A DNA stretch of 64,000 bases from Bacteroidia bacterium (GCA_038237845.1 JBBRYH010000010.1:25692-89691); one strand, 5' to 3'. Shown: positions 40,539 through 54,032, counted from the first letter of the stretch. Program-made: numbers and translations. Notes: a model not told the origin generated them from the letters alone.

Positions 40539-40886
40539 ATGAACAAAGTGATAAATCGTTTCTCAATCAGTGGAATCCTTATTATGGTTCTGTTTACTGT
40601 CGTCCTCAATTCTGGATGTGCAAAGGACAAGCCGTGTAAAGCAATTATTACTGTACTTGATGCAAGCAACAATCCCGTAAGTGGTGCTCAGGTTCATTTA
40701 ATTGCACCTGCCCCTTCTACAGTAGATATTGTCGTTTCAACCGATGCTTCTGGAAAAGCTAGTTTTGAAGTAAATCTTCCTCAGATTCTTGATATTTCAG
40801 TTGTAATCGGAACAACAACTTATCCTACAGGAAAAGTTGTTCGATTCGAACAAGGAAAAACTGACGAGGTAACTGTAAATATTTAA
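40539..40886 (+). CDS. Small lipoprotein with a carboxypeptidase-regulatory-like (Ig-like) beta-sandwich
   Basis: Lipobox VLNSGC. VSGAQVHLIA...TDASGKASFEV. Confidence 0.45.
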   Translation: MNKVINRFSISGILIMVLFTVVLNSGCAKDKPCKAIITVLDASNNPVSGAQVHLIAPAPSTVDIVVSTDASGKASFEVNLPQILDISVVIGTTTYPTGKVVRFEQGKTDEVTVNI

Positions 40887-40907
40887 AAGAACTTTCTCTG
40901 AAATAAT

Positions 40908-40942
40908 AAAGCCCTCACTTAACAGTGGGGGCTTTTCTTTTA
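40908..40942. terminator. Bidirectional terminator GCCCTCAC...GTGGGGGC plus T-run between convergent genes
   Basis: 8-bp stem with one mismatch. ttttctttt follows. Confidence 0.5.
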
Positions 40943-40962
40943 ATATATATATGCTTAGAAAA

Positions 40963-41307
40963 TCAAATCACTTCACCTTTTTCAAAATATTCAATAATCG
41001 TTTCCTGCATAAAACGCTGCTGTTGCCCCGGTTTTAAATTAGGAAGTTTTGAAGTTGGTTTCCAATGCGGCCATTTATCGGCGTCCAATCCTTCATATTC
41101 ATAAAAACCATAAGGTTCAAGCAAAGAACAAATAGCAACATGCATAATGTCCATTTTCTCATCCTTCTTATATTCTTTATATCCATGACCCAATTCCTGA
41201 AGTCCTATAATAAAAAGAATTGCTTGCACATCCAGATCTCCACCGAAGCGAGGTTCAAGTGCCACTAAAAGGGTTTCCCACTGTTTTTTGAAATGTTCGT
41301 CTTGCAC
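40963..41307 (-). CDS. Hypothetical protein (114 aa, GTG start). Preceded by a copy of the GC-rich upstream element.
   Basis: ORF. Element copy at 41331-41344, 24 nt upstream of the start. Confidence 0.45.
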   Translation of the reverse strand: MQDEHFKKQWETLLVALEPRFGGDLDVQAILFIIGLQELGHGYKEYKKDEKMDIMHVAICSLLEPYGFYEYEGLDADKWPHWKPTSKLPNLKPGQQQRFMQETIIEYFEKGEVI

Positions 41308-41330
41308 AGTATAAAGGTAGTGATTGGTAT

Positions 41331-41364
41331 CCGCTTAGGCGGAGTTGATTAGAGATTAGTGATT
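41331..41364 (-). repeat. Copy A of the GC-rich element (read on the minus strand as AATCACTAATCTCTAATCAACTCCGCCTAAGCGG), facing gene 40963-41307
   Basis: 21/25 identity to copy B over AATCAMCTCCGCCTARGCRGAYACC. Confidence 0.6.
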
Positions 41365-41730
41365 TGTTTGTTTTTTTAAATAGTTGATATAACCGTTTAA
41401 TAGCCGAATGCAATTTCCATATTTCATTTTTTGTTTCTGAAATTCCTCCTCTACAATGTAACCTTCATCAAGTGCAACAATCAAATGCTCAAGCGTTTCT
41501 TTTAATGACCCTGCTGACATACGAAGGAATCGGGTATTGTCCTTGAATCCGTATCTGCCATGACCTTCCGCAATGTTTGCAGTGACCGATCGTGAAGATC
41601 GCTTAATCTGTCGAATCAGCTCAAACTTTTCATGTGCAGGAAATTTTTGTGTTAAGATTGAAATCTGTATCCTGAATTCTCTACACAACTTCCAAACCTC
41701 TAATTCTTCAAAGCTATTATATTCTTTCAT
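41356..41730 (-). CDS. Four-helix-bundle protein (23S rRNA intervening-sequence protein / Avd-like family)
   Basis: FPAHEKFELIRQIKRSSRSVTANIAEGHGRY and ...TLEHLIVALDEGYI are diagnostic of TIGR02436-type 4HB proteins. Confidence 0.8.
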   Translation of the reverse strand: MKEYNSFEELEVWKLCREFRIQISILTQKFPAHEKFELIRQIKRSSRSVTANIAEGHGRYGFKDNTRFLRMSAGSLKETLEHLIVALDEGYIVEEEFQKQKMKYGNCIRLLNGYINYLKKQTNH

Positions 41731-41806
41731 ATTTATTATTTTAAAAAGGGCGGCAAAGATGTAGGAAATAATTAATTTTCCAAATTATCCCCAAAAAATT
41801 ATTTTT

Positions 41807-41841
41807 TCACTAATCACCTCCGCCTAGGCAGACACCAATCA
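41807..41841 (+). repeat. Copy B of the GC-rich element (TCACTAATCACCTCCGCCTAGGCAGACACCAATCACC), 20 nt upstream of the cvpA ATG. Forms an inverted pair with copy A around the 4HB gene.
   Basis: Reverse complement is 19/22 identical to copy A. Core contains the palindrome GCCTAGGC. Confidence 0.6.
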
Positions 41842-41851
41842 CCAATCACCA

Positions 41852-42382
41852 ATGAACGCAATCGACATCGTTATTCTAATTCCTGTCCTTTGGGGATTCT
41901 GGCGCGGATTTATGAAAGGCGCTATTATGGAGGCAGCTACACTCATCGCTTTTTTTCTTGGCGTTTGGGGTGGAATGCATTTGTCGCATGGCATGGCCGA
42001 TCTTATTCATAAATGGACCGATTCTACTTCACCCTATATACCCTTGATTTCTTTTGCGCTAGTTTTTGTTGGAATTCTTGCGGCGGTTTTTGGAGTTGCA
42101 AAACTGGTAGAGAAAATGATAGAGAAAATGGCGCTTTCTTTTATCAATAAACTTTTAGGCGGTTGTATTGGAACCATCAAATTTTTAATGATCCTGAGCG
42201 TATTGTTTTTTGTTACCGATCGATTGGAAAAAAATATTGAGATTATTCCGGTGAAGATGAAAGACAATTCATTGCTTTATCGACCTGTTGCAAAAGTAGC
42301 GCCGATGATTATTCCAGGATTAGCCTCAAGTAATTTTGGAAAGGATACTTTGAAAGTTCCACAACTCCCAATAGAAAAGTAA
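41852..42382 (+). CDS. cvpA: CvpA-family membrane protein (colicin V production protein homolog)
   Basis: MNAIDIVILIPVLWGFWRGFMKG... four TM helices, 176 aa. Confidence 0.75.
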   Translation: MNAIDIVILIPVLWGFWRGFMKGAIMEAATLIAFFLGVWGGMHLSHGMADLIHKWTDSTSPYIPLISFALVFVGILAAVFGVAKLVEKMIEKMALSFINKLLGGCIGTIKFLMILSVLFFVTDRLEKNIEIIPVKMKDNSLLYRPVAKVAPMIIPGLASSNFGKDTLKVPQLPIEK

Positions 42383-42387
42383 AAAAC

Positions 42388-42927
42388 TTATTTCCCCTTT
42401 TTCAATTTGAACGATTCCATGAATTGTCGAATTTCATGATTTTCCAATTTCATGTTTTCTGTCACCACAAGTAGCGTGTAAAGATGTTTTCCAATTGCGA
42501 ATTTTCGAATGGTAGAAATGCCACGGTTTCCTGCAATAATCACTTTGTATTCTCTTCCTACTATCTCACCACTTTTTACAACTCTTCCCGTATCTGTCAA
42601 TGTTCCGCCAATCGACCATGCATAAACTTGCACATCGGTTTCAAAAAGATCTTTCATGTTTTCTTTTACTAAGGAAATCGTATCAGGCAAAGAATACATG
42701 GAAACGGCATAATACATATTGGAGTCAAGCGAACCTGGAACAGGTTCATAAAAACTTCTTGAACCTGCATATTCTCCTTCCATTGAAACAGTATCGCGTG
42801 CTATTCCCGGAAACTGTACTGAGAATTCTGAAGTCTCATACACTTTCCAATCTCCCGCACCACAAGAAGTTAATAGCGGGATGAAAAACAGAAGAAGACC
42901 AAGTGTTTTGTAAAAAATTATTTTCAT
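42388..42927 (-). CDS. Hypothetical lipoprotein (179 aa)
   Basis: Lipobox LLTSCGA. Confidence 0.5.
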   Translation of the reverse strand: MKIIFYKTLGLLLFFIPLLTSCGAGDWKVYETSEFSVQFPGIARDTVSMEGEYAGSRSFYEPVPGSLDSNMYYAVSMYSLPDTISLVKENMKDLFETDVQVYAWSIGGTLTDTGRVVKSGEIVGREYKVIIAGNRGISTIRKFAIGKHLYTLLVVTENMKLENHEIRQFMESFKLKKGK

Positions 42928-42943
42928 TATTCTTTATTTCTAG

Positions 42944-44137
42944 CTACTGATTTATTGCTTCAATGCCTGGTAAAGTTCCGGCTTCAATATATTCCAATAA
43001 AGCACCACCGCCTGTTGAAACGTAACTTACTTTTTCAGACAAATTATATTTATTAATTGCGGCTACTGAATCACCACCGCCAATTAATGAGAAAGCTCCT
43101 TTAGCGGTTGCAGCTACAATAGCATCCGCAACTGATTTTGTTCCGCTTGCAAAATTCTCCATTTCAAAAACCCCCATCGGACCATTCCACAAAATTGTTT
43201 TTGAATTTGAAATTACTTCTGCATAAATCTTTTCTGTTACAGGTCCAATATCCAATCCCATCCATCCATCTGGAATTGATTTCACATCGCAAGTCTGAAT
43301 ATTCGCATCATTTGAAAAATTATCTGCACAAACAGCATCAACAGGAATATAAATATTGACACCACGCTTTTTTGCAATTTCTAAAATGTTCAACGCATTC
43401 GGAATTCGATCTTCTTCTACCAATGATTTTCCGACTTTGCCACCTTGCGCTTTCACAAAAGTAAATGCCATTCCTCCACCGATAATTATGTTGTCCGCTT
43501 TATTTATAAGCTGTTCAAGTATTAAAATTTTATCCGAAACTTTCGCACCACCCATAATTGCAGTGAATGGTTTTGTCGCTCCATGTAAAACTTTTTCTAC
43601 ACTCGAAAGTTCTCCCGACATCACAAATCCAAAACATTTATTTGCCGGAAAAAATTTAGCAATTACAGCGGTAGAAGCATGTGCACGATGAGCGGTTCCA
43701 AATGCATCATTCACATAAAAGTCACCAAGTGTTGAAAGCTGCTTTGCAAATGTTTCATCGCCCTTTTCTTCTTGCTTGTGAAAGCGAAGATTCTCCAACA
43801 ATAAAACCTCACCAGCTTTTAAATTATTCGAAGCAATGGTTGCCGGACCGCCGATACAATCACTTGAAAAATGAACAGTTATTCCTCCCAGTAATTCTGA
43901 AAGGTGATTCACTAAATGTTTTAAAGAATATTTTTCTTCCGGACCTTCTTTGGGTCGACCTAAGTGCGACATGAGAATACAGGATCCACCATCACCAAGA
44001 ATTTTTTTAATTGTTGGAATCGCAGCACGCATACGTGTATCATCTGCAATGTGAAACGATTTATCAAGAGGAACATTAAAGTCCACACGAATTAATACTT
44101 TTTTACCTGCGAAATTAAAATCGGCAACTGTTTTCAT
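42944..44137 (-). CDS. pgk: Phosphoglycerate kinase
   Basis: [14 protein letters not shown], 397 aa, Gly-rich nucleotide-binding loops. Confidence 0.95.
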
Positions 44138-44293
44138 TTTGAAAGACTGGAAGTGAATAGTGGAGGCAAAAATACGGTTTTGAAGTCTGAAAAGTGAAAC
44201 GAAAGAAGTAGAAATTCAGAAAAAATTTACAAAAATGCGATCCTGGAAATAAAAATAAGAGACTGATAGGCAAGGAGATGTAATAAATAATAT

Positions 44294-44309
44294 TTAGACA
44301 TTTGTCTAA
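44294..44309. promoter_or_regulatory. Perfect inverted repeat TTAGACA-tt-TGTCTAA, 30 nt upstream of the sdpR-like gene. Candidate operator overlapping the promoter; a TAtcTTTG -7-like box lies at 44320-44327.
   Basis: Read directly. ArsR/SdpR autorepressors bind such dyads. Confidence 0.55.
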
Positions 44310-44338
44310 TTATACAATTATATTATATCTTTGACCCA

Positions 44339-44623
44339 ATGAACGCATTATTTAAAGCTTTAGACGATCCGACGAGACGCCAGATTCTGGAACTGCTCAG
44401 AGAAAAAGATAGGACTGCAGGGGATATTGCAGATGCTTTCACAATTAGCAAACCAAGCATCTCACACCATCTCGATTTATTACGTCAAGCGAATCTTGTG
44501 ATTTCGATTAAGGAAGGCCAATTCGTCCGCTATTCTTTAAATACAACCGTTTTTGATGAACTGATCGGATGGGTTATGAATTTATCAGATAAGAAAAACA
44601 CAAAACGAAAAAATAAAAAGTAA
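44339..44623 (+). CDS. sdpR: ArsR/SmtB-family winged-helix autorepressor, SdpR-like
   Basis: LDDPTRRQILELL...AGDIADAFTISKPSISHHLDLLRQANLV. 1-nt overlap (TAATG) with the downstream SdpI-like gene. Confidence 0.8.
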   Translation: MNALFKALDDPTRRQILELLREKDRTAGDIADAFTISKPSISHHLDLLRQANLVISIKEGQFVRYSLNTTVFDELIGWVMNLSDKKNTKRKNKK

Positions 44624-45291
44624 TGAAAACAAAAGACTTTATTAAACGAGAATGGTCGATGTGGTTGTTGATTTTAATTCCAACCGTTTTTGCAATAATC
44701 AACTGGAATAATTTTCCTGATAAAATTCCTACCCATTGGGATATTAATGGAGACGTAAATGATTACGGTGGAAAATGGGCGGTCTTCCTTGGACCAATGA
44801 TCGGAACGGCAATGTATTTTCTGATGATCGTTCTGCCGAAAATAGATCCGCGCAAAAAAAATTATGATTTGTTTAGCGGCGCATATTGGATGATCAGAAT
44901 TGGAATAATTCTTTTAATGTCCATTATCGGAATTGTAACTGAACTGGTTTCGCTGGGCTATAAATTGGATGTGGGCATGATCGTTCAATTGGCGGTACTT
45001 GGCCTTTTCCTTTTAATCGGAAATCAAATGGGAAGAATCCGTCCGAATTATTTTGTTGGAATCAGAACTCCTTGGACCATTGACAATGAAGAAGTGTGGA
45101 CCAAAACACATCGTTTGGCGGGAAGAATTTGGGTCGGAACATGTTTGGTTTTAATGCTTGTTTTGTTTTTTATTCCGGTAAAAATATTTGCAATAATTTT
45201 CTTTGTTTCAATTATTACGATGTCTGTTATTCCGTTGGTCTATTCCTATTTGTTGTACAAAAAAATAAAAGCGCAACATACTTCAAATTAA
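44623..45291 (+). CDS. sdpI: SdpI/YhfL-family membrane immunity protein (DUF1648 + SdpI domains)
   Basis: IRPNYFVGIRTPWTIDNEEVWTKTHRLAGRIWV is the SdpI signature. Six TM helices. Confidence 0.75.
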   Translation: MKTKDFIKREWSMWLLILIPTVFAIINWNNFPDKIPTHWDINGDVNDYGGKWAVFLGPMIGTAMYFLMIVLPKIDPRKKNYDLFSGAYWMIRIGIILLMSIIGIVTELVSLGYKLDVGMIVQLAVLGLFLLIGNQMGRIRPNYFVGIRTPWTIDNEEVWTKTHRLAGRIWVGTCLVLMLVLFFIPVKIFAIIFFVSIITMSVIPLVYSYLLYKKIKAQHTSN

Positions 45292-45323
45292 TAGTTCACT
45301 AGAGGGTTATTGCCACAAAGACA

Positions 45324-45339
45324 CTCCGCCGCGGCGGAG
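45324..45339. repeat. Perfect 16-bp GC palindrome CTCCGCCGCGGCGGAG, flanked by direct CACAAAG repeats. Shares the TCCGCC core with the GC-rich element.
   Basis: Read directly. Unusual in an AT-rich intergenic region. Confidence 0.6.
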
Positions 45340-45442
45340 GCACAAAGAAAGGGAGACTCTTTAGAAAATACCATAGCCCAATAACATGAATCTAAGAGTT
45401 GACTAATCACCAAAACTAATCATCAATCACTATCTTTATAAT

Positions 45443-46579
45443 ATGCTTTTCCGCAATATAATTGGCCAATCAGAAATAAAACATCGCTTGATTTCAAGTG
45501 TGGCTTCTAATCGTATTTCACATGCTCAATTAATTTTCGGGCCTGAAGGTTGTGGTTCTTTACCGATTGCAGTTGCTTATGCAAGATTTATTCATTGTAC
45601 GAATCGTGGAGAAAATGATTCTTGTGACGAATGCCCTTCTTGTCAGAAATACAATAAACTTGTTCATCCCGATTTGCATTTTGCATTTCCGATAAAAAGT
45701 ATGAAAGACACTCCTGTAAGTGATTCTTTTATTGCTGAATGGAGAGATGCATTTCTTGACAATCCCTATTTAAGTATTGACGAGTGGACCGAAAAAATTG
45801 AAGCGGATAACAAACAATTAATTATTCCTGAAAAAGAAAGCGGAGAAATTTTAAGAAAATTAAATCTCACCACCTTCGAAGCGGAATATAAAATCATGAT
45901 CATCTGGATGCCGGAGAAAATGAATCTTACCTCCGCGAATAAATTATTGAAAATTCTGGAAGAGCCACCTGCAAAAACTTTATTTCTGCTCGTAACCGAA
46001 AGTGAAGATCAACTGTTGCGCACGATAGTTTCTCGAACACAATTAGTTCGTATGCGTAAAATTTCGGATGAAGAATTGCGTGATGCATTGGTTTCCCGAC
46101 ATGAACTTGCAGTAGCCGACGCAGAAAAAATTGCTTTTCAAGCAGATGGAAATTATGCTTTTGCAAGATCATTACTCAGTCGCACGGAACAAGCGGCTTA
46201 CAATCTTGCCACTTTCCAAAAATTAATGCGCTCGAGTTTAAAATTCGATCCTGCAAAAGTTTTGTCTGTTGTGGATGACTTAGCAGGAATTGGACGTGAA
46301 CGACAAAAACAATTTTTCAGTTATTCTCTTGACCTTGTCCGCGAATGTTTTCTTTTAGGCTACGCCGATCAGTCGATGGTGCGTATGGCCGGAGAAGAAT
46401 TGGAATTCATAACCAAGTTTTCAAAGTTCATTCACGCAGCAAACGGCGAAAAATTAATTGAGGAATTTAACCTCGCCATGAAACATATTGAAAGGAATGG
46501 CTCACCAAAAATCATTTTGTTGGATCTAGCTTTTAAGATTAATGAGCTGATTAATGTGCCGAGGCCTGTGATGAGTTAG
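45443..46579 (+). CDS. holB: DNA polymerase III subunit delta prime
   Basis: GPEGCGSLPIAVAYARFIHC...CDECPSCQKYNKLVHPDLHF, AAA+ clamp-loader, 378 aa. Confidence 0.85.
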   Translation: MLFRNIIGQSEIKHRLISSVASNRISHAQLIFGPEGCGSLPIAVAYARFIHCTNRGENDSCDECPSCQKYNKLVHPDLHFAFPIKSMKDTPVSDSFIAEWRDAFLDNPYLSIDEWTEKIEADNKQLIIPEKESGEILRKLNLTTFEAEYKIMIIWMPEKMNLTSANKLLKILEEPPAKTLFLLVTESEDQLLRTIVSRTQLVRMRKISDEELRDALVSRHELAVADAEKIAFQADGNYAFARSLLSRTEQAAYNLATFQKLMRSSLKFDPAKVLSVVDDLAGIGRERQKQFFSYSLDLVRECFLLGYADQSMVRMAGEELEFITKFSKFIHAANGEKLIEEFNLAMKHIERNGSPKIILLDLAFKINELINVPRPVMS

Positions 46580-46856
46580 AAACATCCACATCATTGAATT
46601 TCCTCAAAGGGTTAGCTAAACCCCGAATTATTAACATATCCCTGTGTAAATCAGGATTTTGGACATTGTAATCCCAGTCCTAAAAACCCGTATTTTTGTT
46701 ATTGCTCGGAACACCCTGATTTTTAAGGATATCGCCGGGCGAATTCACTAAACGATTCATTTCGTAGTTAATAGTTCGGAGATGTTGGTTCGGAGAAATC
46801 CAGAGAACTAATTTTATCTCCAAACGAAGAACTCCGAACAAAGAACTTATATATAA

Positions 46857-48281
46857 ATGGGATGTGGTAGTTGTTCGACTAACGGCCGAGGCTGTAGTAC
46901 AGAAGTAAATGGTGTCCCTGGCGGATGCAAAAGCAATGGTTCCTGCGGTTCAGGAGGTTGTAACAAACTCAATGTTTTCGATTGGTTAGCCAATATGGAA
47001 TTACCAAACGGACAAAAACCTTTTGATTTGGTTGAAGTCCGTTTTAAAAACTCAAGAAAAGAATTTTTCAGAAACGTGAACGATCTTCCCCTTCAAATGG
47101 GAGAAGTAATTGCTGTGGAAGGTTCTCCTGGGCATGATATAGGAACCGTTTCCTTAACAGGAGAATTGGTAAAAACCCAACTCATTCGCAAAAACGTTAA
47201 AGCGGAAGATCCTGCCATCAAAAAAGTATATCGTAAAGTGCGTTCGTTGGATGTTGAAAAATGGTTGGAAGCACAAGGACTGGAGCAAGACACGATGATG
47301 CGTTCACGAAAAATTGCATCGGATATGGGCTTGCGCATGAAAATTTCCGATGTAGAATATCAAGGAGATAAAACAAAAGCAATATTTTTTTACACCGCAG
47401 AAGAGCGAGTTGATTTCCGTGAATTAATTAAAGTGCTTGCTGAACAATTCAAAGTAAGAATTGAAATGCGTCAGATCGGTTCTCGTCAGGAAGCTGCACG
47501 TTTAGGCGGAATAGGTTCTTGTGGTCGTGAGCTTTGTTGTTCAACATGGCTTTCAGATTTCCGTTCAGTTACAACTGGCGCCGCACGTTATCAGCAACTT
47601 TCCTTGAATCCATTAAAGCTTGCTGGGCAATGCGGAAAATTAAAATGTTGTTTGAATTATGAATTGGATGCGTATCTCGATGCGTTAAAAGAATTTCCAG
47701 AACCACAAGATGTAGAAACTGTTCGAGGGAAAGCACGCCATCAGAAAACAGATATTTTTAAAGGAGTTATGTTTTTCACTTTTGCAGATGAACCAGATCA
47801 GTTTCTTCCTGTACCTGCTCGTCGCGTGAAAGAAATTATTGAAATGAATAAGCGCGGTGAAAAACCGGATGAGTTAGGTGTTCTTAAAACACAAAAAGAA
47901 ATTGAAGCAGTAGATGAACCCGATTTTGAAAATGTTGTTGGACAGGATTCATTGACGCGTTTTGATCAGGCAAAACGCAGCAAGAAAAAGAAGAAGAAAA
48001 AAGGGCCTGCCGGAGAAAATTCAAATCCGAACGCACAACAAACAGGAACTCAACAACGTTCTCCTCAACAGAGACCACAAGGACAAAATCCGCAAGGACC
48101 GAACGCGAATCCAAATCAGAATCGCCCACGTCCAAATCCGAATCAACAAAATAAACCGGCGAATCCGAATCAAAAACCGAATCCAAATCAAAACAGGAAT
48201 CGACCGCCACACAGAAAAGATAACAGTGGACCGCCAGCACCACAAGCACCACCGCACAATACACCGCCACCAACTGTTTAG
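46857..48281 (+). CDS. ricT: PSP1 C-terminal-domain protein (RicT/YaaT-like) with a Cys-rich N-terminus and a long Q/P/N-rich C-terminal tail
   Basis: FDLVEVRFKNSRKEFFRN...GEVIAVEGSPGHDIGTV is the PSP1 domain. holB-yaaT synteny as in Bacillus. N-terminus MGCGSCSTNGRGCST...GGCKSNGSCGSGGC. Confidence 0.8.
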   Translation: MGCGSCSTNGRGCSTEVNGVPGGCKSNGSCGSGGCNKLNVFDWLANMELPNGQKPFDLVEVRFKNSRKEFFRNVNDLPLQMGEVIAVEGSPGHDIGTVSLTGELVKTQLIRKNVKAEDPAIKKVYRKVRSLDVEKWLEAQGLEQDTMMRSRKIASDMGLRMKISDVEYQGDKTKAIFFYTAEERVDFRELIKVLAEQFKVRIEMRQIGSRQEAARLGGIGSCGRELCCSTWLSDFRSVTTGAARYQQLSLNPLKLAGQCGKLKCCLNYELDAYLDALKEFPEPQDVETVRGKARHQKTDIFKGVMFFTFADEPDQFLPVPARRVKEIIEMNKRGEKPDELGVLKTQKEIEAVDEPDFENVVGQDSLTRFDQAKRSKKKKKKKGPAGENSNPNAQQTGTQQRSPQQRPQGQNPQGPNANPNQNRPRPNPNQQNKPANPNQKPNPNQNRNRPPHRKDNSGPPAPQAPPHNTPPPTV

Positions 48282-48282
48282 T

Positions 48283-48759
48283 ATGTACAGGTTTCTCATT
48301 TTTGTTGGATTGATTTTTTCATTGGTAAATTTTTCATCATGCGATAAAAATCGTTTGTATGATGAAAATCGTGATGTGAAAGATGGTGTTTGGGATATTA
48401 AACAACAATTGGTTTTTGATTTTGATGTTCCCGATTCGGTAACGAAATACAATTTCTATTTCAACATTCGCAATACCGATGATTATCCTTACAGCAACAT
48501 TTATGTTTTTTTCAAAACAACTTTTCCTAATGGAAAAACCGGAATTGACACCGTTGAATTTCCACTAGCAGATGAAAATGGAAGATGGTATGGAAAAGGA
48601 CAAGGAGATGTACATGATTGTCGCTTAGTTTTCCGACAGGGCGTTCGTTTTCCATTAGCAGGAAAATATCACATGGAAATTCAACAAGCCATGCGAATGG
48701 AACAATTGCCCGGTGTCATTAATGCAGGAGTCCGCATCGAAGAAGCAGAGAAAAAGTAG
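48283..48759 (+). CDS. gldH: Gliding motility lipoprotein GldH
   Basis: MYRFLIFVGLIFSLVNFSSCDKNRLYDENRDV...YPYSNIYVFF, 158 aa, lipobox FSSC. ATG lies 2 nt after the ricT-like stop. The listed 265-aa ORF is an alternate-frame artefact upstream of 48283. Confidence 0.8.
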   Translation: MYRFLIFVGLIFSLVNFSSCDKNRLYDENRDVKDGVWDIKQQLVFDFDVPDSVTKYNFYFNIRNTDDYPYSNIYVFFKTTFPNGKTGIDTVEFPLADENGRWYGKGQGDVHDCRLVFRQGVRFPLAGKYHMEIQQAMRMEQLPGVINAGVRIEEAEKK

Positions 48760-48797
48760 TCGGAATTGCACTTCCTTTTACTTAACTTTGAGTTAAC

Positions 48798-49742
48798 ATG
48801 AAAAAATTTCCCCGAATTATTTTCTTTCTATTTCCCATTTTGTTTTTCTGCATTACCTGTAGAGTTGATGAAATAAAAAAAACATACAAGACCAAACATG
48901 TTATTGTGATTGTTGTAGATGGAGTTCGCTATTCTGAAAACTGGGGCGATTCAACTCATTCGAGAATTCCATTTCAATACACAACACTATTTCCTCAAGG
49001 CGTTATGCTTACCAATTTCAGAAATAACGGATATACTTGGACAAATGCCGGTCATGATGCGCTGACAACTGGTGTATATGAACCCTTAGATAATGGCGGA
49101 AATCAGTTTCCTTCAGAGCCATCGATGTTTCAATATTGGAGAAAATTTACAGGATCTCCTGCAGAAAAAGCATGGGTGATTACTTCAAAAGATAAATTGT
49201 ATGTGCTTGCAAATACTGCTGATCAGGAATATCAATCGAAGTTTATGCCGCGCTATGATTGTGGAATTAATGGCCCATTTTCAGGGTACAGAGATGATCA
49301 AACTACAAAAGATCATGTCATCGCAACACTTTCTCAATATCATCCAGATTTGATGTTGGTAAATTTTCGTGAACCAGATTATAGTGGTCATACAGGTGTC
49401 TGGAATAATTATCTCACAGGAATTGCGAGCACCGATCATTATTGCTCTTTAATCTGGGATGCATTGCAAAGTGATCCCTATTATGCCGGCACTACCACAA
49501 TGATTATTACGAATGATCATGGCCGTCACTTGGATAATGTTTATGATGGCTTTGTAAGTCATGGTGATAATTGCGAAGGTTGCCGTCATATTGCTTTCTG
49601 TGCAGCGGGTCCTGATTTCAAAAGGAATTTCAGCAGTTCAGTAGCTTATGAACAGGTTGATATTCCAAGAACCATTGCAGAATTGATGGGCTTTCCGATG
49701 CCAACGGCTCCTGGAAAAGTGATGCGCGAAATTCTTCGCTAA
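48798..49742 (+). CDS. Secreted alkaline-phosphatase-superfamily protein (phosphodiesterase or sulfatase-like)
   Basis: HVIVIVVDGVRYSENWGD metal-site-like motif. Signal peptide. Confidence 0.4.
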   Translation: MKKFPRIIFFLFPILFFCITCRVDEIKKTYKTKHVIVIVVDGVRYSENWGDSTHSRIPFQYTTLFPQGVMLTNFRNNGYTWTNAGHDALTTGVYEPLDNGGNQFPSEPSMFQYWRKFTGSPAEKAWVITSKDKLYVLANTADQEYQSKFMPRYDCGINGPFSGYRDDQTTKDHVIATLSQYHPDLMLVNFREPDYSGHTGVWNNYLTGIASTDHYCSLIWDALQSDPYYAGTTTMIITNDHGRHLDNVYDGFVSHGDNCEGCRHIAFCAAGPDFKRNFSSSVAYEQVDIPRTIAELMGFPMPTAPGKVMREILR

Positions 49743-49828
49743 ATCTTCACATCATTTATTCATTTTCCTCAAACACTTATCCTTTTCACTCTTAGCGGGG
49801 ACCATTTTTCATTACTTTTGATTCCGAA

Positions 49829-52168
49829 ATGGCAGACGAAAAACCTATAGAAAAAGCAGCAAAGAATTCTAAAAATTCAAGCTCAGCAAAACCAAGTCAT
49901 AAACGTTGGATTCGATTTTTCTGGATTCTATTATTGACTCCTGTTGCTGGAATTGTATCGCTTGTTTTGGGAATCGCCATGTTCGCCGATCTTCCAGACA
50001 TTGAGCAATTAACAAATCCCGAAAGTAATCTTGCAACGGTTTGTTATTCTGCAGATGGAAAAGAATTAGGAAGATTTTATCTCGAAAATCGGGTTTCAGT
50101 TCAGTATAAGGATATTGATCCTGATGTTATTCATGCATTAGTTGCAACAGAGGATGAACGTTATTACGAACATTCAGGTATTGACGGAAGAAGTTTGGGT
50201 CGTGTTTTTATTAAAACATTTGCTGGTGGAGATCGTAGCTCTGGAGGAGGATCAACCATTACACAACAGCTTGCAAAAATGCAGTTTCACGCAAAAGAAG
50301 CTGAACACGCAACAAAAACACAACGTGCTTTCCAAAAATTAAAAGAGTGGATCATTGCAGTTCGACTTGAGCGCTTGTTTACGAAAGATGAGATCGTCGC
50401 ACTTTATTTAAATAAATACGATTTTAATTATAATGCGGTTGGTATTAATTCTGCAGCGAAAGTTTATTTCTCCACTACTTCCGATTCATTGAAAATTGAA
50501 GAAGCAGCAGTGCTGGTAGGAATGTGTCAGAATCCTTCACGATGGAATCCATTAATTTTTCCTGACAGCGCAATGAAGCGTAGAAATCTTGTGATGTACC
50601 AAATGGAACGCAATGGATTTATCACAAAACACCAATACGATTCTTTAAAAGCGCTTCCAATTGTTACACACTTCAATCCCGAATCACATAACGAAGGACT
50701 GGCTCCTTATTTCCGAGAATATCTGAGAGAAAATTTCATGAAGAAATGGTGTTCGGAACATTTGAAACCGAATGGCAAGCCTTACGACATGTATCGCGAC
50801 GGTTTAAAAGTTTATACGACGATTGATACACGAATGCAAACGTATGGTGAACAAGCAGTGGCTGAACACATGGCCGACTTGCAGAAGAATTTTGATATTG
50901 AATTAAAAGACAAAAGAAATCGTCCCTTCAGTTGGAAGGTGAAAAAAGAAGAGATCGATCAGATTTTAAATTCAGGGAAAGTTCGTTCCGATCGTTATCA
51001 TCATATGAAAAAAGGCGGTTCCTCTGATGCAGAAATTGAAAAGGCCTTCAATACAAAAGTGAAGATGAATGTGTTTTCATGGCATGGTGATATTGATACG
51101 ATGTTGTCGCCAATGGATTCTATTCGATATTACAAATCATTTTTACAAACAGGATTTATGGCAATGGAACCACAGACAGGATATATCCGTGCCTGGGTGG
51201 GAGGAATTAATTTCAGACATTTTCAATACGATCACGTAAAAGTTAGTAAGCGTCAAGTAGGTTCGACTTTCAAACCATTTATTTATGCGCTTGCTATTCA
51301 AGAAGGATATTCGCCTTGCGATCAGGTGCCATGTATTCGCACTTGTATTCCGAATGAAGATGGAAAAACAGAATGGTGTCCGAATAATTCATGGTCGAAA
51401 CAGGAAGAAGCAAAATACAGTGGTAAAATGATCACGTTGAAAAAAGCATTAGCGCTTTCTATCAATTATGTTTCTGCTTACATCATGAAACAATTCGGTC
51501 CGCATGCTGTTGTTGATTTTGCACGCAACGTAGGAATCACCTCGCCATTGGAAGCTGTTCCTTCATTATGTTTGGGTACTGCAGATATTAGCTTATACGA
51601 AATGGTTGGTGCGAATAGCACATTTGTAAATAAAGGAACATGGATTGAACCAACTTTTATCACGCGCATTGAAGATAAAAACGGAAAAGTGTTGGAAGAA
51701 TTTATTCCGAAATCAAAAGAAGCATTGAGTGAAGAGAAAGCTTATTTGATGATTAATCTAATGCGCGGAGTTGTTGATATTGGAACAGGAGGACGATTAC
51801 GAAGTACTTACAAAATTTTAAATCCTGTGGCAGGAAAAACAGGAACAACACAAAACAATTCCGACGGATGGTTTATGGGATTAACTCCTGATTTAGTTGC
51901 AGGTGTGTGGGTAGGAGGCGAAGATCGTAGTGTGCATTTTGATAGAACAGCGGAAGGACAAGGTGCTTCCATGGCACTTCCGATATGGGCAAAATTTTTC
52001 AAGCGGGTTTATGCAGATAAATCTTTAAAAATTTCTCAAGGAGAATTTCCGAAACCAAAAGGAAAAATAATGATGGATTTAGATTGTTCTAAATTCGATA
52101 AAGATGATGGTCCGATTTTCGATGATCCGAATTCTGGAATTTTTGGAGATGATGGTAGTTATCCTTAG
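49829..52168 (+). CDS. mrcA: Penicillin-binding protein 1A (bifunctional transglycosylase/transpeptidase)
   Basis: GT51 motifs ATEDERYYEHSGID, GGSTITQQLAK, RKxxE. Transpeptidase STFKP and KTGTT. 779 aa. Confidence 0.9.
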   Translation: MADEKPIEKAAKNSKNSSSAKPSHKRWIRFFWILLLTPVAGIVSLVLGIAMFADLPDIEQLTNPESNLATVCYSADGKELGRFYLENRVSVQYKDIDPDVIHALVATEDERYYEHSGIDGRSLGRVFIKTFAGGDRSSGGGSTITQQLAKMQFHAKEAEHATKTQRAFQKLKEWIIAVRLERLFTKDEIVALYLNKYDFNYNAVGINSAAKVYFSTTSDSLKIEEAAVLVGMCQNPSRWNPLIFPDSAMKRRNLVMYQMERNGFITKHQYDSLKALPIVTHFNPESHNEGLAPYFREYLRENFMKKWCSEHLKPNGKPYDMYRDGLKVYTTIDTRMQTYGEQAVAEHMADLQKNFDIELKDKRNRPFSWKVKKEEIDQILNSGKVRSDRYHHMKKGGSSDAEIEKAFNTKVKMNVFSWHGDIDTMLSPMDSIRYYKSFLQTGFMAMEPQTGYIRAWVGGINFRHFQYDHVKVSKRQVGSTFKPFIYALAIQEGYSPCDQVPCIRTCIPNEDGKTEWCPNNSWSKQEEAKYSGKMITLKKALALSINYVSAYIMKQFGPHAVVDFARNVGITSPLEAVPSLCLGTADISLYEMVGANSTFVNKGTWIEPTFITRIEDKNGKVLEEFIPKSKEALSEEKAYLMINLMRGVVDIGTGGRLRSTYKILNPVAGKTGTTQNNSDGWFMGLTPDLVAGVWVGGEDRSVHFDRTAEGQGASMALPIWAKFFKRVYADKSLKISQGEFPKPKGKIMMDLDCSKFDKDDGPIFDDPNSGIFGDDGSYP

Positions 52169-52215
52169 AGGGAATTATAAAATGAAAAACTTTATTAATC
52201 AGAATCGATAATTCA

Positions 52216-52914
52216 ATGAACAAAGTAGTTTCAAACGCCGAAGAAGCAATCAGCGATATAAAAGACGGAGCGACCATCATGCTCGGTGGTTTCGGATTGT
52301 GTGGCATTCCCGAAAATTCAATCGCAGCATTGGTAAAGAGTGGCGTAAGAAATCTCACCTGCATTTCTAATAATGCGGGAGTGGATGATTTTGGAATTGG
52401 CCTTCTCTTAAAAACGCGTCAGGTGAAAAAAATGATTTCATCTTATGTGGGTGAAAATGCAGAATTCGAAAGACAATTACTAAGCGGCGAATTGGAAGTT
52501 GATTTAATTCCGCAGGGAACACTTGCAACACGTTGTATGGCGGCAGCCTACGGAATGCCGGCTGTATTTGTACGTGCAGGAGTAGGGACAGAAGTTGCCA
52601 TTGGGAAAGAAACAAGGAATTTCAACGGAATAGAATACTTAATGGAATATGCATTTGATGCAGAATTCTCCATTGTAAAAGCATGGAAAGCTGATACGCA
52701 CGGAAATTTAATGTTCCGGAAAACAACGAGAAACTTTAACGTGCCAATGGCAATGGGTGGAAAAATTACGATTGCCGAAGTGGAAGAAATTGTTCCGGCA
52801 GGTGAACTTGATCCCGATTGTATTCACGTTCCCGGGATTTATGTGCATCGCGTGTTCAAAGGAGAGAAATTTGAAAAGCGAATTGAGCAAAGAACAGTAA
52901 GGAAGAAGTCATAA
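52216..52914 (+). CDS. scoA: 3-oxoacid CoA-transferase subunit A
   Basis: IMLGGFGLCGIPE, 232 aa. Confidence 0.9.
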   Translation: MNKVVSNAEEAISDIKDGATIMLGGFGLCGIPENSIAALVKSGVRNLTCISNNAGVDDFGIGLLLKTRQVKKMISSYVGENAEFERQLLSGELEVDLIPQGTLATRCMAAAYGMPAVFVRAGVGTEVAIGKETRNFNGIEYLMEYAFDAEFSIVKAWKADTHGNLMFRKTTRNFNVPMAMGGKITIAEVEEIVPAGELDPDCIHVPGIYVHRVFKGEKFEKRIEQRTVRKKS

Positions 52915-52936
52915 TTTATAATTGAATTTTTTTACA

Positions 52937-52968
52937 AATCACTTCCGCCCAGGCGCACACTAATTATT
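52937..52968 (+). repeat. Copy D of the GC-rich element (AATCACTTCCGCCCAGGCGCACACTAATTATT), 13 nt upstream of ORF 52969
   Basis: About 26/33 identity to copy B. Confidence 0.6.
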
Positions 52969-53265
52969 ATGAAACCATACATCGACTTAGAAGGAAAAAA
53001 AATCTACCTACCACAATCTGTAGATGCACACAATTTTGAAATTTGTGTAATGGGAGATTTTTTCCTGTTGTGTAAAAAAGTAACTCAACGTTATTCACAG
53101 GCAACAGGTGTTTTGATGGAACGATCAGGAAAAGAATTAATTTTCCATAAATCAGTAAGCTCTTATTTTCTTAGAACGTTCCCGCTAAACAAAAGTGAAT
53201 TTTATAAAATCAATATCGACTATCAAGCCAACAATGGTCCAATTTCAATTGTTCACGAGGAATAA
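52969..53265 (+). CDS. Hypothetical 98-aa protein inserted between scoA and scoB
   Basis: ORF only. No recognised motif. Confidence 0.4.
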   Translation: MKPYIDLEGKKIYLPQSVDAHNFEICVMGDFFLLCKKVTQRYSQATGVLMERSGKELIFHKSVSSYFLRTFPLNKSEFYKINIDYQANNGPISIVHEE

Positions 53266-53372
53266 GTTATTAGTTATTTGCGAGTAGTTATTAGAAAATA
53301 GTTTAGAAGACTCATTTTAATTAATAATCAATTGCTGATAACCAATCGCTAATCACTAATAACTCAACAACC

Positions 53373-54032
53373 ATGCTAGACAAAAACGGAATTGCAAAAC
53401 GGATTGCCAAAGAAGTAAAAGACGGGAATTACGTAAATCTCGGAATCGGAATCCCAACTTTGGTTGCAAATTATATTCCCAAAGGAATTGAAGTAACCTT
53501 GCAATCTGAAAATGGAATGTTAGGCATGGGACCTTTTCCTTTTGAAGGTGATGAAGATCCTGATTTGATAAATGCTGGAAAACAAACCATCACTGAAGTT
53601 CCTGGCACATCGTATTTTGATTCTGCATTAAGCTTTGGAATGATACGTGCAGGAAAAGTTGATCTTACTATTCTTGGTGCAATGGAAGTAAGCGAAGAAG
53701 GCGATATTGCTAATTGGAAAATTCCGGGTAAAATGGTGAAGGGAATGGGCGGTGCGATGGATCTTGTTGCTGCAGCGAAAAATATTATTGTAGCCATGCA
53801 GCATGTGAACAAAGCCGGAGAATCCAAATTACTTCCGAAATGTTCGCTCCCATTGACAGGAGTAAAATGCGTTCGTAAAATTGTAACAGAGTTAGCGGTA
53901 GTAGAAGTAATTCCAGGAAAGGGATTTAAACTACTTGAGCGCGCACCAGGAGTGAGTGTAGAAGAAATCATTAAAGCCACAGCAGGAAAACTAATTGTTG
54001 AGGGAGAAATTCCTGAAATGAATCTGGATTAA
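53373..54032 (+). CDS. scoB: 3-oxoacid CoA-transferase subunit B
   Basis: Conserved GxGGAMDL region (MVKGMGGAMDLVAAAK), 219 aa. Confidence 0.9.
   Translation: MLDKNGIAKRIAKEVKDGNYVNLGIGIPTLVANYIPKGIEVTLQSENGMLGMGPFPFEGDEDPDLINAGKQTITEVPGTSYFDSALSFGMIRAGKVDLTILGAMEVSEEGDIANWKIPGKMVKGMGGAMDLVAAAKNIIVAMQHVNKAGESKLLPKCSLPLTGVKCVRKIVTELAVVEVIPGKGFKLLERAPGVSVEEIIKATAGKLIVEGEIPEMNLD

Follow-up and report, generated by a model that had tools for sequence, protein, structure and literature searches.

What is the GC-rich element of about 30 nt that recurs immediately upstream of three unrelated start codons in an uncultured Bacteroidia bacterium? The DNA analysed here, referred to as the window, is a stretch of 64,000 nt (GCA_038237845.1 JBBRYH010000010.1:25692-89691) with a GC content of 37.6%. 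An earlier note on the window had described three oriented copies of the element and a fourth, palindromic site, and had listed an operator, a structure of the translation-initiation region and an element resembling repetitive extragenic palindromes (REPs) as candidate functions. The explanation favoured here, with a probability of about 0.65, is a composite one. Two of the copies would be parts of the arms of a cassette that resembles the intervening sequences (IVSs) of rRNA, in which a gene for a four-helix-bundle protein is bracketed by inverted arrays of heptamers; the GC-rich core would be a small palindromic repeat nested in these arrays, and relics of such arms would lie nearby.

The window was scanned on both strands with the degenerate 20-mer AATCAMYTCCGCCYARGCRG, and the result was compared with 100 dinucleotide shuffles. 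Matches were obtained at 41331-41350 (minus strand, no mismatches; copy A), 41812-41831 (plus strand, no mismatches; copy B) and 52937-52956 (plus strand, one mismatch; copy C). Three matches compare with a mean of 0.04 in the shuffles, none of which (0/100) contained three; this confirms the recurring GC-rich element as real and non-random and bears out the three oriented copies of the earlier note. Counted from the alignment over 33 nt, the pairwise identities are 88% (A/B), 76% (B/C) and 70% (A/C), and the 'about 80%' given before was a fair description. The positions relative to start codons also stand: A precedes the GTG at 41307 of a 114-aa open reading frame (ORF; 40963-41307, minus strand), a start that is kept as GTG or ATG among orthologues, B precedes the cvpA ATG at 41852, and C precedes the ATG at 52969 of a 98-aa ORF. 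The 114-aa and 98-aa ORFs show no homology to each other, and neither has a Pfam or NCBIfam match. Three further points were absent from the earlier note. Copy A overlaps the stop codon (41356-41358) of a minus-strand gene that lies upstream of it, A and B form an inverted pair around that gene, and the 'AATCAC' parts of the motif are units of a heptamer repeat. Because A and B face outwards, as do the two flanking genes (the 114-aa ORF and cvpA), the apparent orientation of these copies towards start codons is automatic.

The gene enclosed by A and B (41356-41730, minus strand) encodes a 124-aa four-helix-bundle protein of the S23p/Avd-like type. The protein matches PF05635 (23S rRNA intervening-sequence protein; E = 2e-31), TIGR02436 (four helix bundle protein; E = 9.5e-30) and the structure of Xanthomonas S23p (XCC0516; PDB entry 2gsc; E = 9e-12). 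Its gene forms the loop between the arms of an inverted repeat (51 nt, 76% complementarity). The left arm (41320-41370, minus strand; the 3' arm in the sense of the gene) consists of degenerate CCAATCA/CTAATCA heptamers with the GC-rich core of copy A inside, and overlaps the stop codon of the gene; the right arm (41792-41842, plus strand; the 5' arm in the sense of the gene) contains the core of copy B. Calculated energies of the arm-arm duplex are -59.1 kcal/mol (minus strand) and -56.5 kcal/mol (plus strand). When 581 nt were folded, the long-range A:B stem was present in both the minimum-free-energy (MFE) and the centroid structures of both strands, with z about -3 and with the arms paired over about 33 bp. 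A promoter-like box, CATCTTTGCCGCC (41749-41761, minus strand), ends 23 nt before the ATG of the four-helix-bundle gene and is its putative promoter; we take it to fit the Bacteroidota -7 motif TAnnTTTG at 5/6 specified positions. On the outer side of the right arm, three tandem heptamers, CCAATCA CCAATCA CCAATGA (41835-41855, plus strand; period 7, 3.0 copies, 100% matches), run into cvpA, the start codon of which (41852-41854) lies within the last unit, CCAATGA (41849-41855). Copies A and B are thus the arms around the PF05635 gene of a bracketed cassette, which sits between two protein-coding genes, the 114-aa gene and cvpA.

The same cassette was found in the closest relatives of this bacterium, whose cvpA proteins are about 80-87% identical to that of the window and whose cassette proteins are 72-82% identical to the 124-aa protein. 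At the cvpA locus, the cassette with its gene is present in the loci L002, L086 and L108. In the L002 cassette, the array on the cvpA side is (CCAATCA)n, in which CCTCCGCCGCGGCGGACA occurs twice without mismatch, and that on the other side is (GGTAATC/GGTAATT)n; L086 and L108 have (GGTGATT)n upstream of the gene and four CCAATCA-type units downstream, without the GC-rich core. The same arms accompany the gene upstream of pth in L087 (protein 74% identical to that of the window) and upstream of a PP-binding/AMP-binding pair in L088 (72%). The block TTTCATCTTTGCGGCC is invariant in five cassettes at about 23 nt before the ATG. The gene is absent from the cvpA locus of L003 and L092, where inverted arrays of three or four units surround a loop of 13-18 nt, and L004 has kept the arrays together with a remnant of the 5' end of the gene and the promoter-like box. 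The loop of L003 retains GGTAAGAAAATTT and CCCCAATCA, which resemble the two inner junctions of the cassette. The array, the promoter-like box, the ORF and the inverted array form one unit that recurs in three genomic contexts. This recurrence, together with the gene-less state at the cvpA locus of some relatives, shows that the cassette has been duplicated or moved and that the gene has been lost in place; the inner junctions in L003 and the 5' remnant in L004 indicate that the gene-less hairpins at this locus derive from cassettes.

To see how far this arrangement extends, 80 loci from species-representative genomes of other Bacteroidota were compared, chosen as those that matched the query subfamily best; among them are Mucilaginibacter, Paludibacter, Runella, Roseivirga, Chitinophagaceae, Saprospiraceae, Flavobacteriales and others. 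For each gene, the score was that of the best local alignment between its 200-nt upstream flank and the reverse complement of its 200-nt downstream flank. The median score was 18.2 for 82 four-helix-bundle genes and 8.5 for 89 genes of other kinds at a distance from the cassette in the same loci, and a score of at least 20 was reached by 40% of the former and 0% of the latter (Mann-Whitney p = 1e-25). The arms are tandem arrays with a period of 7-9 nt (for example GGTTATT, AGTTGATT, GTTTATAGA and GGTTAAAAGGG). The score of a gene's own pair of arms exceeded the cross-locus mean in 79/84 cases (Wilcoxon p = 4e-15), from which it follows that the sequence of the arms varies among cassettes while their complementarity is kept within each. 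Read 5' to 3', the first arm has more than 60% G+T in 46/56 cases and is A+C-rich in none (0), which means that on both sides the outgoing sequence is poor in G and rich in A+C. Since an inverted repeat looks the same from either strand, this polarity belongs to the hairpin and says nothing about the orientation of the gene. Flanking inverted arrays of tandem repeats are therefore the rule for this subfamily.

Several four-helix-bundle genes were also found within 5 kb of each other at single loci, namely two in L075, three in L076 and two in L015. Each of the genes in L075 has its own, different pair of arms.

Arrays of this kind also occur as hairpins without a gene. Within the window, the arms 53265-53297 (AGTTATT units) and 53332-53364 (CCAATCG/CTAATCA/CTAATAA units, of the TAATCAC type) are 82% complementary and form a hairpin on the plus strand (53265-53364) of -25.3 kcal/mol with z -4.5; a second hairpin, with the units GTTCGGAGA/CTCCGAAC, lies at 46755-46858 (-29 kcal/mol, z -3.75). 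Both are located just 5' of a start codon, and different array hairpins occupy the same intergenic positions in the relatives (L002 13467-13661; L003 12360-12545 and 20400-20460; L004 6230-6350). It could be argued that such hairpins existed first, as terminators or processing sites of the host, that the gene is a mobile insert which targets their loops and that the GC-rich core is a by-product of palindrome-forming mutation. The gene-less hairpins with their other units would fit this, as would the differences in arms among cassettes, even within L075, and the occurrence of inverted heptamer arrays without such genes in Xanthomonas (PMC4692102) and in unrelated viral contigs, where 11 contigs contain (CCAATCA)3 and 0 of them a four-helix-bundle gene. 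We nevertheless consider it unlikely, because the same GGTGATT arms accompany the gene to three genomic contexts in this clade, the loop of L003 with its retained GGTAAGAAAATTT and CCCCAATCA resembles an internal deletion of a cassette, and L004 has kept the 5' remnant of the gene.

The GC-rich core itself can be separated from the arms. When the four sites of the window are aligned with both L002 copies, TCCGCC..GC is invariant, and the core stands out as a separate module of 18-19 nt, nested, derived and palindromic, with the consensus CC-TCCGCCGCGGCGGA-CA. Modules A (ACTCCGCCTAAGCGGATA, 18 nt; 41328-41345, minus strand) and B (CCTCCGCCTAGGCAGACA, 18 nt; 41817-41834, plus strand) are both flanked by CTAATCA on the left and CCAATCA on the right. 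Module C (CTTCCGCCCAGGCGCACA; 52942-52959, plus strand) lies between AAATCA and CTAATTA. The two modules of L002 (CCTCCGCCGCGGCGGACA; spaced by 46 nt) have CCAATCA on both sides. In the window (A and B) and in L002 the module is thus in phase between heptamer units. Module D (CACTCCGCCGCGGCGGAGG; 45322-45340, strand-neutral) lies outside any array and is flanked by CACAAAGA on the left (45314-45321) and on the right (45341-45348), as read on the plus strand. The core of D is identical to both L002 copies. The settings of the module are therefore one arm in L002, both arms in the window, an arm relic for C and a position outside an array for D.

Module D contains the perfect 16-bp palindrome CTCCGCCGCGGCGGAG (45324-45339) that the earlier note had recorded with CACAAAG direct repeats; the palindrome is as described, but the flanking repeat has 8 nt rather than 7. 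It is the only perfect palindrome in the window with a half-length of at least 8. Simulated sequence gives about two such palindromes per window when any composition is allowed, whereas by our own estimate the chance of one with 14/16 G/C in a window of this GC content is about 0.001. The 8-nt direct repeat may be a target-site duplication.

Module A is missing from the orthologous 3' arm in six relatives (L086, L108, L002, L003, L004 and L092), so it is a derived gain in the lineage of the window, and the insertion is polymorphic among related genomes. In L002 the module is confined to the 5' arm and would bulge from the arm-arm stem; in the window it occupies matching positions on both arms and is part of the A:B stem. 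A search at up to two mismatches found the module nowhere else in 531 kb of fetched loci, and no nested GC-rich palindromes were found in the arms of the other 80 loci at a 60% GC cut-off, which would miss that of L087 described below. The strict motif AATCAMYTCCGCCYARGCRSAYAC had 0 matches in the genome_contigs and metagenome_contigs collections, and AATCACCTCCGCCNNGGCNGACAC had 0 in metagenome_contigs although L002, on JGI contig Ga0395908_0000001, contains it twice (L002 9849-9872 and 9895-9918), which makes the negatives from the latter collection weak. A relaxed pattern gave three matches in viral contigs, all in GC-rich coding sequence and judged to be due to chance. At gathering scores, Rfam gave one tRNA for the whole window and nothing for the element, and at E values up to 1 it gave no more than sub-threshold noise in 40800-53500. 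The TCCGCC..GGCGGA module is specific to this lineage.

In L087 (region 315-345) a different perfect 18-nt palindrome, TCCCGATAGCTATCGGGA, is found at the outer end of an array of 11 GGTGATT units; like the module of the window, it starts with TCC and ends with GGA.

A palindromic core close to three start codons is also what would be expected of an operator through which a dimeric transcription factor co-regulates the three downstream genes, and a gene for an ArsR-family protein with a helix-turn-helix (44339-44623) lies 0.7 kb upstream of D. The copies do not behave as operators, however. B (GGCAGA) and C (GGCGCA) have degenerate half-sites, A overlaps the stop of the preceding gene, and D is downstream, not upstream, of the ArsR/SdpI pair, between two co-directional genes. 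No conserved dyad is found at a fixed distance in the orthologous promoters: the earlier note had asked for conservation in relatives, and the intergenic region between cvpA and the 114-aa gene has no module in L003, L004 and L092, where the promoter region lacks it, or in L086 and L108, where the arm does; its spacing from the cvpA start is not conserved either. Insertion in phase within a tandem array, twice in tandem in L002, is the behaviour of a repeat. We regard an operator as highly improbable, which removes a false lead, namely an operator common to cvpA and the two small ORFs.

Local folding was considered for the same copies. Copy A (-7.2 kcal/mol, z -4.6) and module D (a 6-bp GC stem) form stable local stems, while B (-2.1 kcal/mol, z +0.5) and C (-3.4 kcal/mol, z +0.06) fold no better than shuffles. 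The stems of A and D, and the way in which the array and module abut the cvpA ATG in the window, could point to a leader hairpin that tunes translation initiation or mRNA stability; in Bacteroidota, which need no Shine-Dalgarno sequence to start translation, the structure of the leader matters. A structure of the translation-initiation region was another candidate of the earlier note, and the leader hairpin does not hold up well: in addition to the failure of B and C to fold, there are no compensatory changes that would maintain a local stem, the differences between A and B largely fit A:B pairing, and the module is missing from the orthologous leaders. Such a function seems to us very unlikely. 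A still less probable suggestion is that the copies are intrinsic terminators of the upstream genes, as A, C and D are each located just past the stop codon of a co-directional gene and D was terminator-like in a scan. D was flagged on the minus strand only, where no gene ends, no copy is followed by a T-run on the coding strand, and B lies in a divergent promoter region and, like C, does not fold; a GC-rich hairpin with a U-tract on the transcribed strand was found at none of them. Taken together, neither a conserved local hairpin nor a symmetric site for a protein is likely at the module, and of the functions first proposed the REP-like element was right in direction, as a small dispersed palindromic repeat.

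One further resemblance is probably coincidental. The stretch ATCACCTCC (41813-41821), at the junction of heptamer and module B, is identical to what we take to be the 3' end of 16S rRNA, the anti-Shine-Dalgarno; the other copies read ATCAACTCC and ATCACTTCC at this position.

How might the composite cassette work? The arms probably act by pairing with each other, since complementarity is kept while the arm sequence differs among cassettes. The most likely setting would be a read-through transcript that forms the long stem, which RNase III would cut as it does in rRNA intervening sequences; cleavage of the A:B stem in this way is a prediction from the folding and the likeness of the elements. 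Alternatively, the arms may act at the DNA level, as a cruciform or a recombination substrate. The strand that faces outwards is G-poor, and flanking genes would thereby acquire A+C-rich, weakly structured leaders, and this would account for the seeming direction of the copies towards start codons. The module may spread as a very small nested insertion or may be copied from arm to arm; its in-phase position, its pattern of presence and absence and the 8-nt direct repeat at D support insertion. In the window, the two module copies would lengthen and strengthen the A:B stem.

Several observations weigh against this explanation. Since the conserved promoter-like box is enclosed by the arms, transcripts started there would not include the 5' arm, and a stem could form in RNA only if transcription entered from outside. 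The stem is more stable on the sense strand at 15 loci and on the antisense strand at 25. The 80 loci were selected by similarity and are no random sample of PF05635. For the mobility of the module, six copies were seen in all (in the window and the 531 kb of loci), and the two in L002 may be one insertion duplicated by array slippage, given their 46-nt spacing. No empty site was found for C or D, where the relatives are too divergent; the intergenic regions of SdpI homologues could not be aligned with that of module D. The direct repeat at D could also be two units of a decayed array.

A strand asymmetry due to G·U pairs was considered as a sign of function at the RNA level. It was found in L002 (-60.8 kcal/mol for the sense strand versus -33.2 kcal/mol for the antisense strand), and was dropped in view of the 15 versus 25 cases across loci. 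With no general strand bias, action at the RNA level and at the DNA level cannot be distinguished.

The closest known elements are the S23p-type 23S rRNA intervening sequences and the small dispersed repeats (SDRs) of cyanobacteria. In Coxiella, the terminal stem of the intervening sequence is 28 bp long and is cleaved by RNase III; the S23p ORF occupies the loop, and variable tandem heptamers adjoin this ORF (PMC4990558). The S23p-type elements of Leptospira, Coxiella, Xanthomonas and Brucella share with the cassette a unit of about 0.4-0.75 kb, a PF05635 ORF in the loop and terminal inverted repeats with a stem of about 28-33 bp, and in Coxiella also the heptamers beside the ORF. They differ in that the window cassette sits between protein-coding genes and not in helix 9, 25 or 45 of 23S rRNA, that its arms are themselves tandem-repeat arrays and that its ORF has its own conserved promoter-like box. 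The cassette thus has a PF05635/TIGR02436 protein and a long terminal inverted-repeat stem around the ORF, but no rRNA is present in the 64-kb window; judged by its sequence, it has the architecture of the class and falls outside it, because it is not in rRNA.

The comparison for the module is with the SDRs that Elhai et al. reportedly described in 2008 in heterocyst-forming cyanobacteria, which are said to be 21-27 nt long and nested in tandem heptamer arrays. The module resembles these in being about 20 nt long, partly palindromic, dispersed, located within heptamer arrays at A, B and in L002, though not at D, and present or absent among relatives; it differs in phylum, sequence, length (18-19 nt versus 21-27 nt) and the six copies seen. 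By this likeness the module may be mobile. REPs and the inverted REP doublets (REPINs) are likewise short, GC-rich, imperfect and extragenic palindromes that occur singly or as inverted doublets, whereas the module lies within tandem arrays and its A/B doublet encloses a gene; no gene for a REP-associated tyrosine transposase (RAYT) was identified in the part of the window's ORFs that was scanned for transposases. As a miniature inverted-repeat transposable element (about 50-500 bp), module D with its 8-nt flanking direct repeat would be too short at 19 nt. The arrays themselves have counterparts in the GGGAATC heptamers of Xanthomonas and the GGGGAYT heptamers of Nostoc, which are intergenic, lie near ORF ends, often form convergent pairs and vary in length and sequence among close relatives (PMC4692102). 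These, and the short tandemly repeated repetitive (STRR) sequences of cyanobacteria, are tandem heptamers that converge and can form stem-loops, as in the window; the unit of the window (CCAATCA/GGTGATT) is not G-quadruplex-forming and the arrays bracket one gene family. The inverted arrays studied here have period 7 in the window, occur as gene-less pairs in L003 and L092 and range over 7-9 nt across loci. No link from such arrays to S23-type genes is drawn in PMC4692102 ('S23' occurs 0 times), and no description of free-standing PF05635 genes as hairpin-embedded cassettes was found in a literature search of incomplete coverage.

A wider, tentative proposal goes beyond the subfamily. The free-standing S23p/Avd-like genes of Bacteroidota might be widespread, IVS-like selfish hairpin cassettes in mRNA or intergenic space, with arrays colonized by a palindromic micro-element of about 18 nt; we consider this possible, though rather less likely than not. 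The arms would then be fast-evolving arrays in which complementarity is kept by selection or by arm-to-arm conversion, their polarity would be fixed (G+T-rich on entry and A+C-rich on exit), and the micro-element would insert with a 7-8-bp duplication. If so, few mobile elements known outside cyanobacteria would be as small. PF05635 proteins are abundant and multi-copy and have no known function outside diversity-generating retroelements. Should their genes routinely sit in the loops of repeat hairpins, the rRNA intervening sequences would be a special case of a broader element, and RNase III processing or hairpin-directed recombination would explain its spread and its tolerance inside operons.

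The region next to cvpA also differs among these genomes. In L002, L003 and L004, the array and cvpA are about 50-100 nt apart, with a promoter-like TTGAC...TTTGAAAA in between, and the gap is 12 nt in L092. In the window the promoter-like stretch of the relatives is absent and the array runs into the ATG; among the relatives and the window, the array-to-start distance spans 0 to about 100 nt. In the window the array has taken the place of the cvpA leader, which must therefore begin within the arm or before it and would include module B. The presence of B in this leader is a by-product of cassette dynamics and does not point to a dedicated regulatory site.

Copy C belongs to a solo arm relic (52934-52966, plus strand), which consists of ACAAATCA, module C and CTAATTA and lies between the stop codon of the gene for CoA-transferase subunit A and the 98-aa ORF. 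No partner arm was found for it, and no significant local fold. A degenerate tract of AATCA-type heptamers, ACTAATCACCAAAACTAATCATCAATCACT (45402-45431, plus strand), is located upstream of the start of the DNA polymerase III delta-prime gene at 45443. The genes for subunits A (52216-52914) and B (53373-54032) of the CoA-transferase would be expected to be adjacent and are separated here by the 98-aa ORF (52969-53265); L003 has a 102-aa ORF in its place.

The arrays break assemblies: the contigs of three independent assemblies, those of L086, L088 and L108, begin inside (GGTGATT)n (positions 1-24), and breaks at arrays would fit their being repeated in those genomes. In the viral contigs L096, L098 and L101, (CCAATCA)n is inversely paired with GTGATTG-type arrays, and some of these contigs have a GC content of about 70%. 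Elsewhere in the window, the segment 7365-8042 is densely filled with tandem repeats of 15, 30 and 45 nt, with the unit CAACAACTTTTTTAG and its variants.

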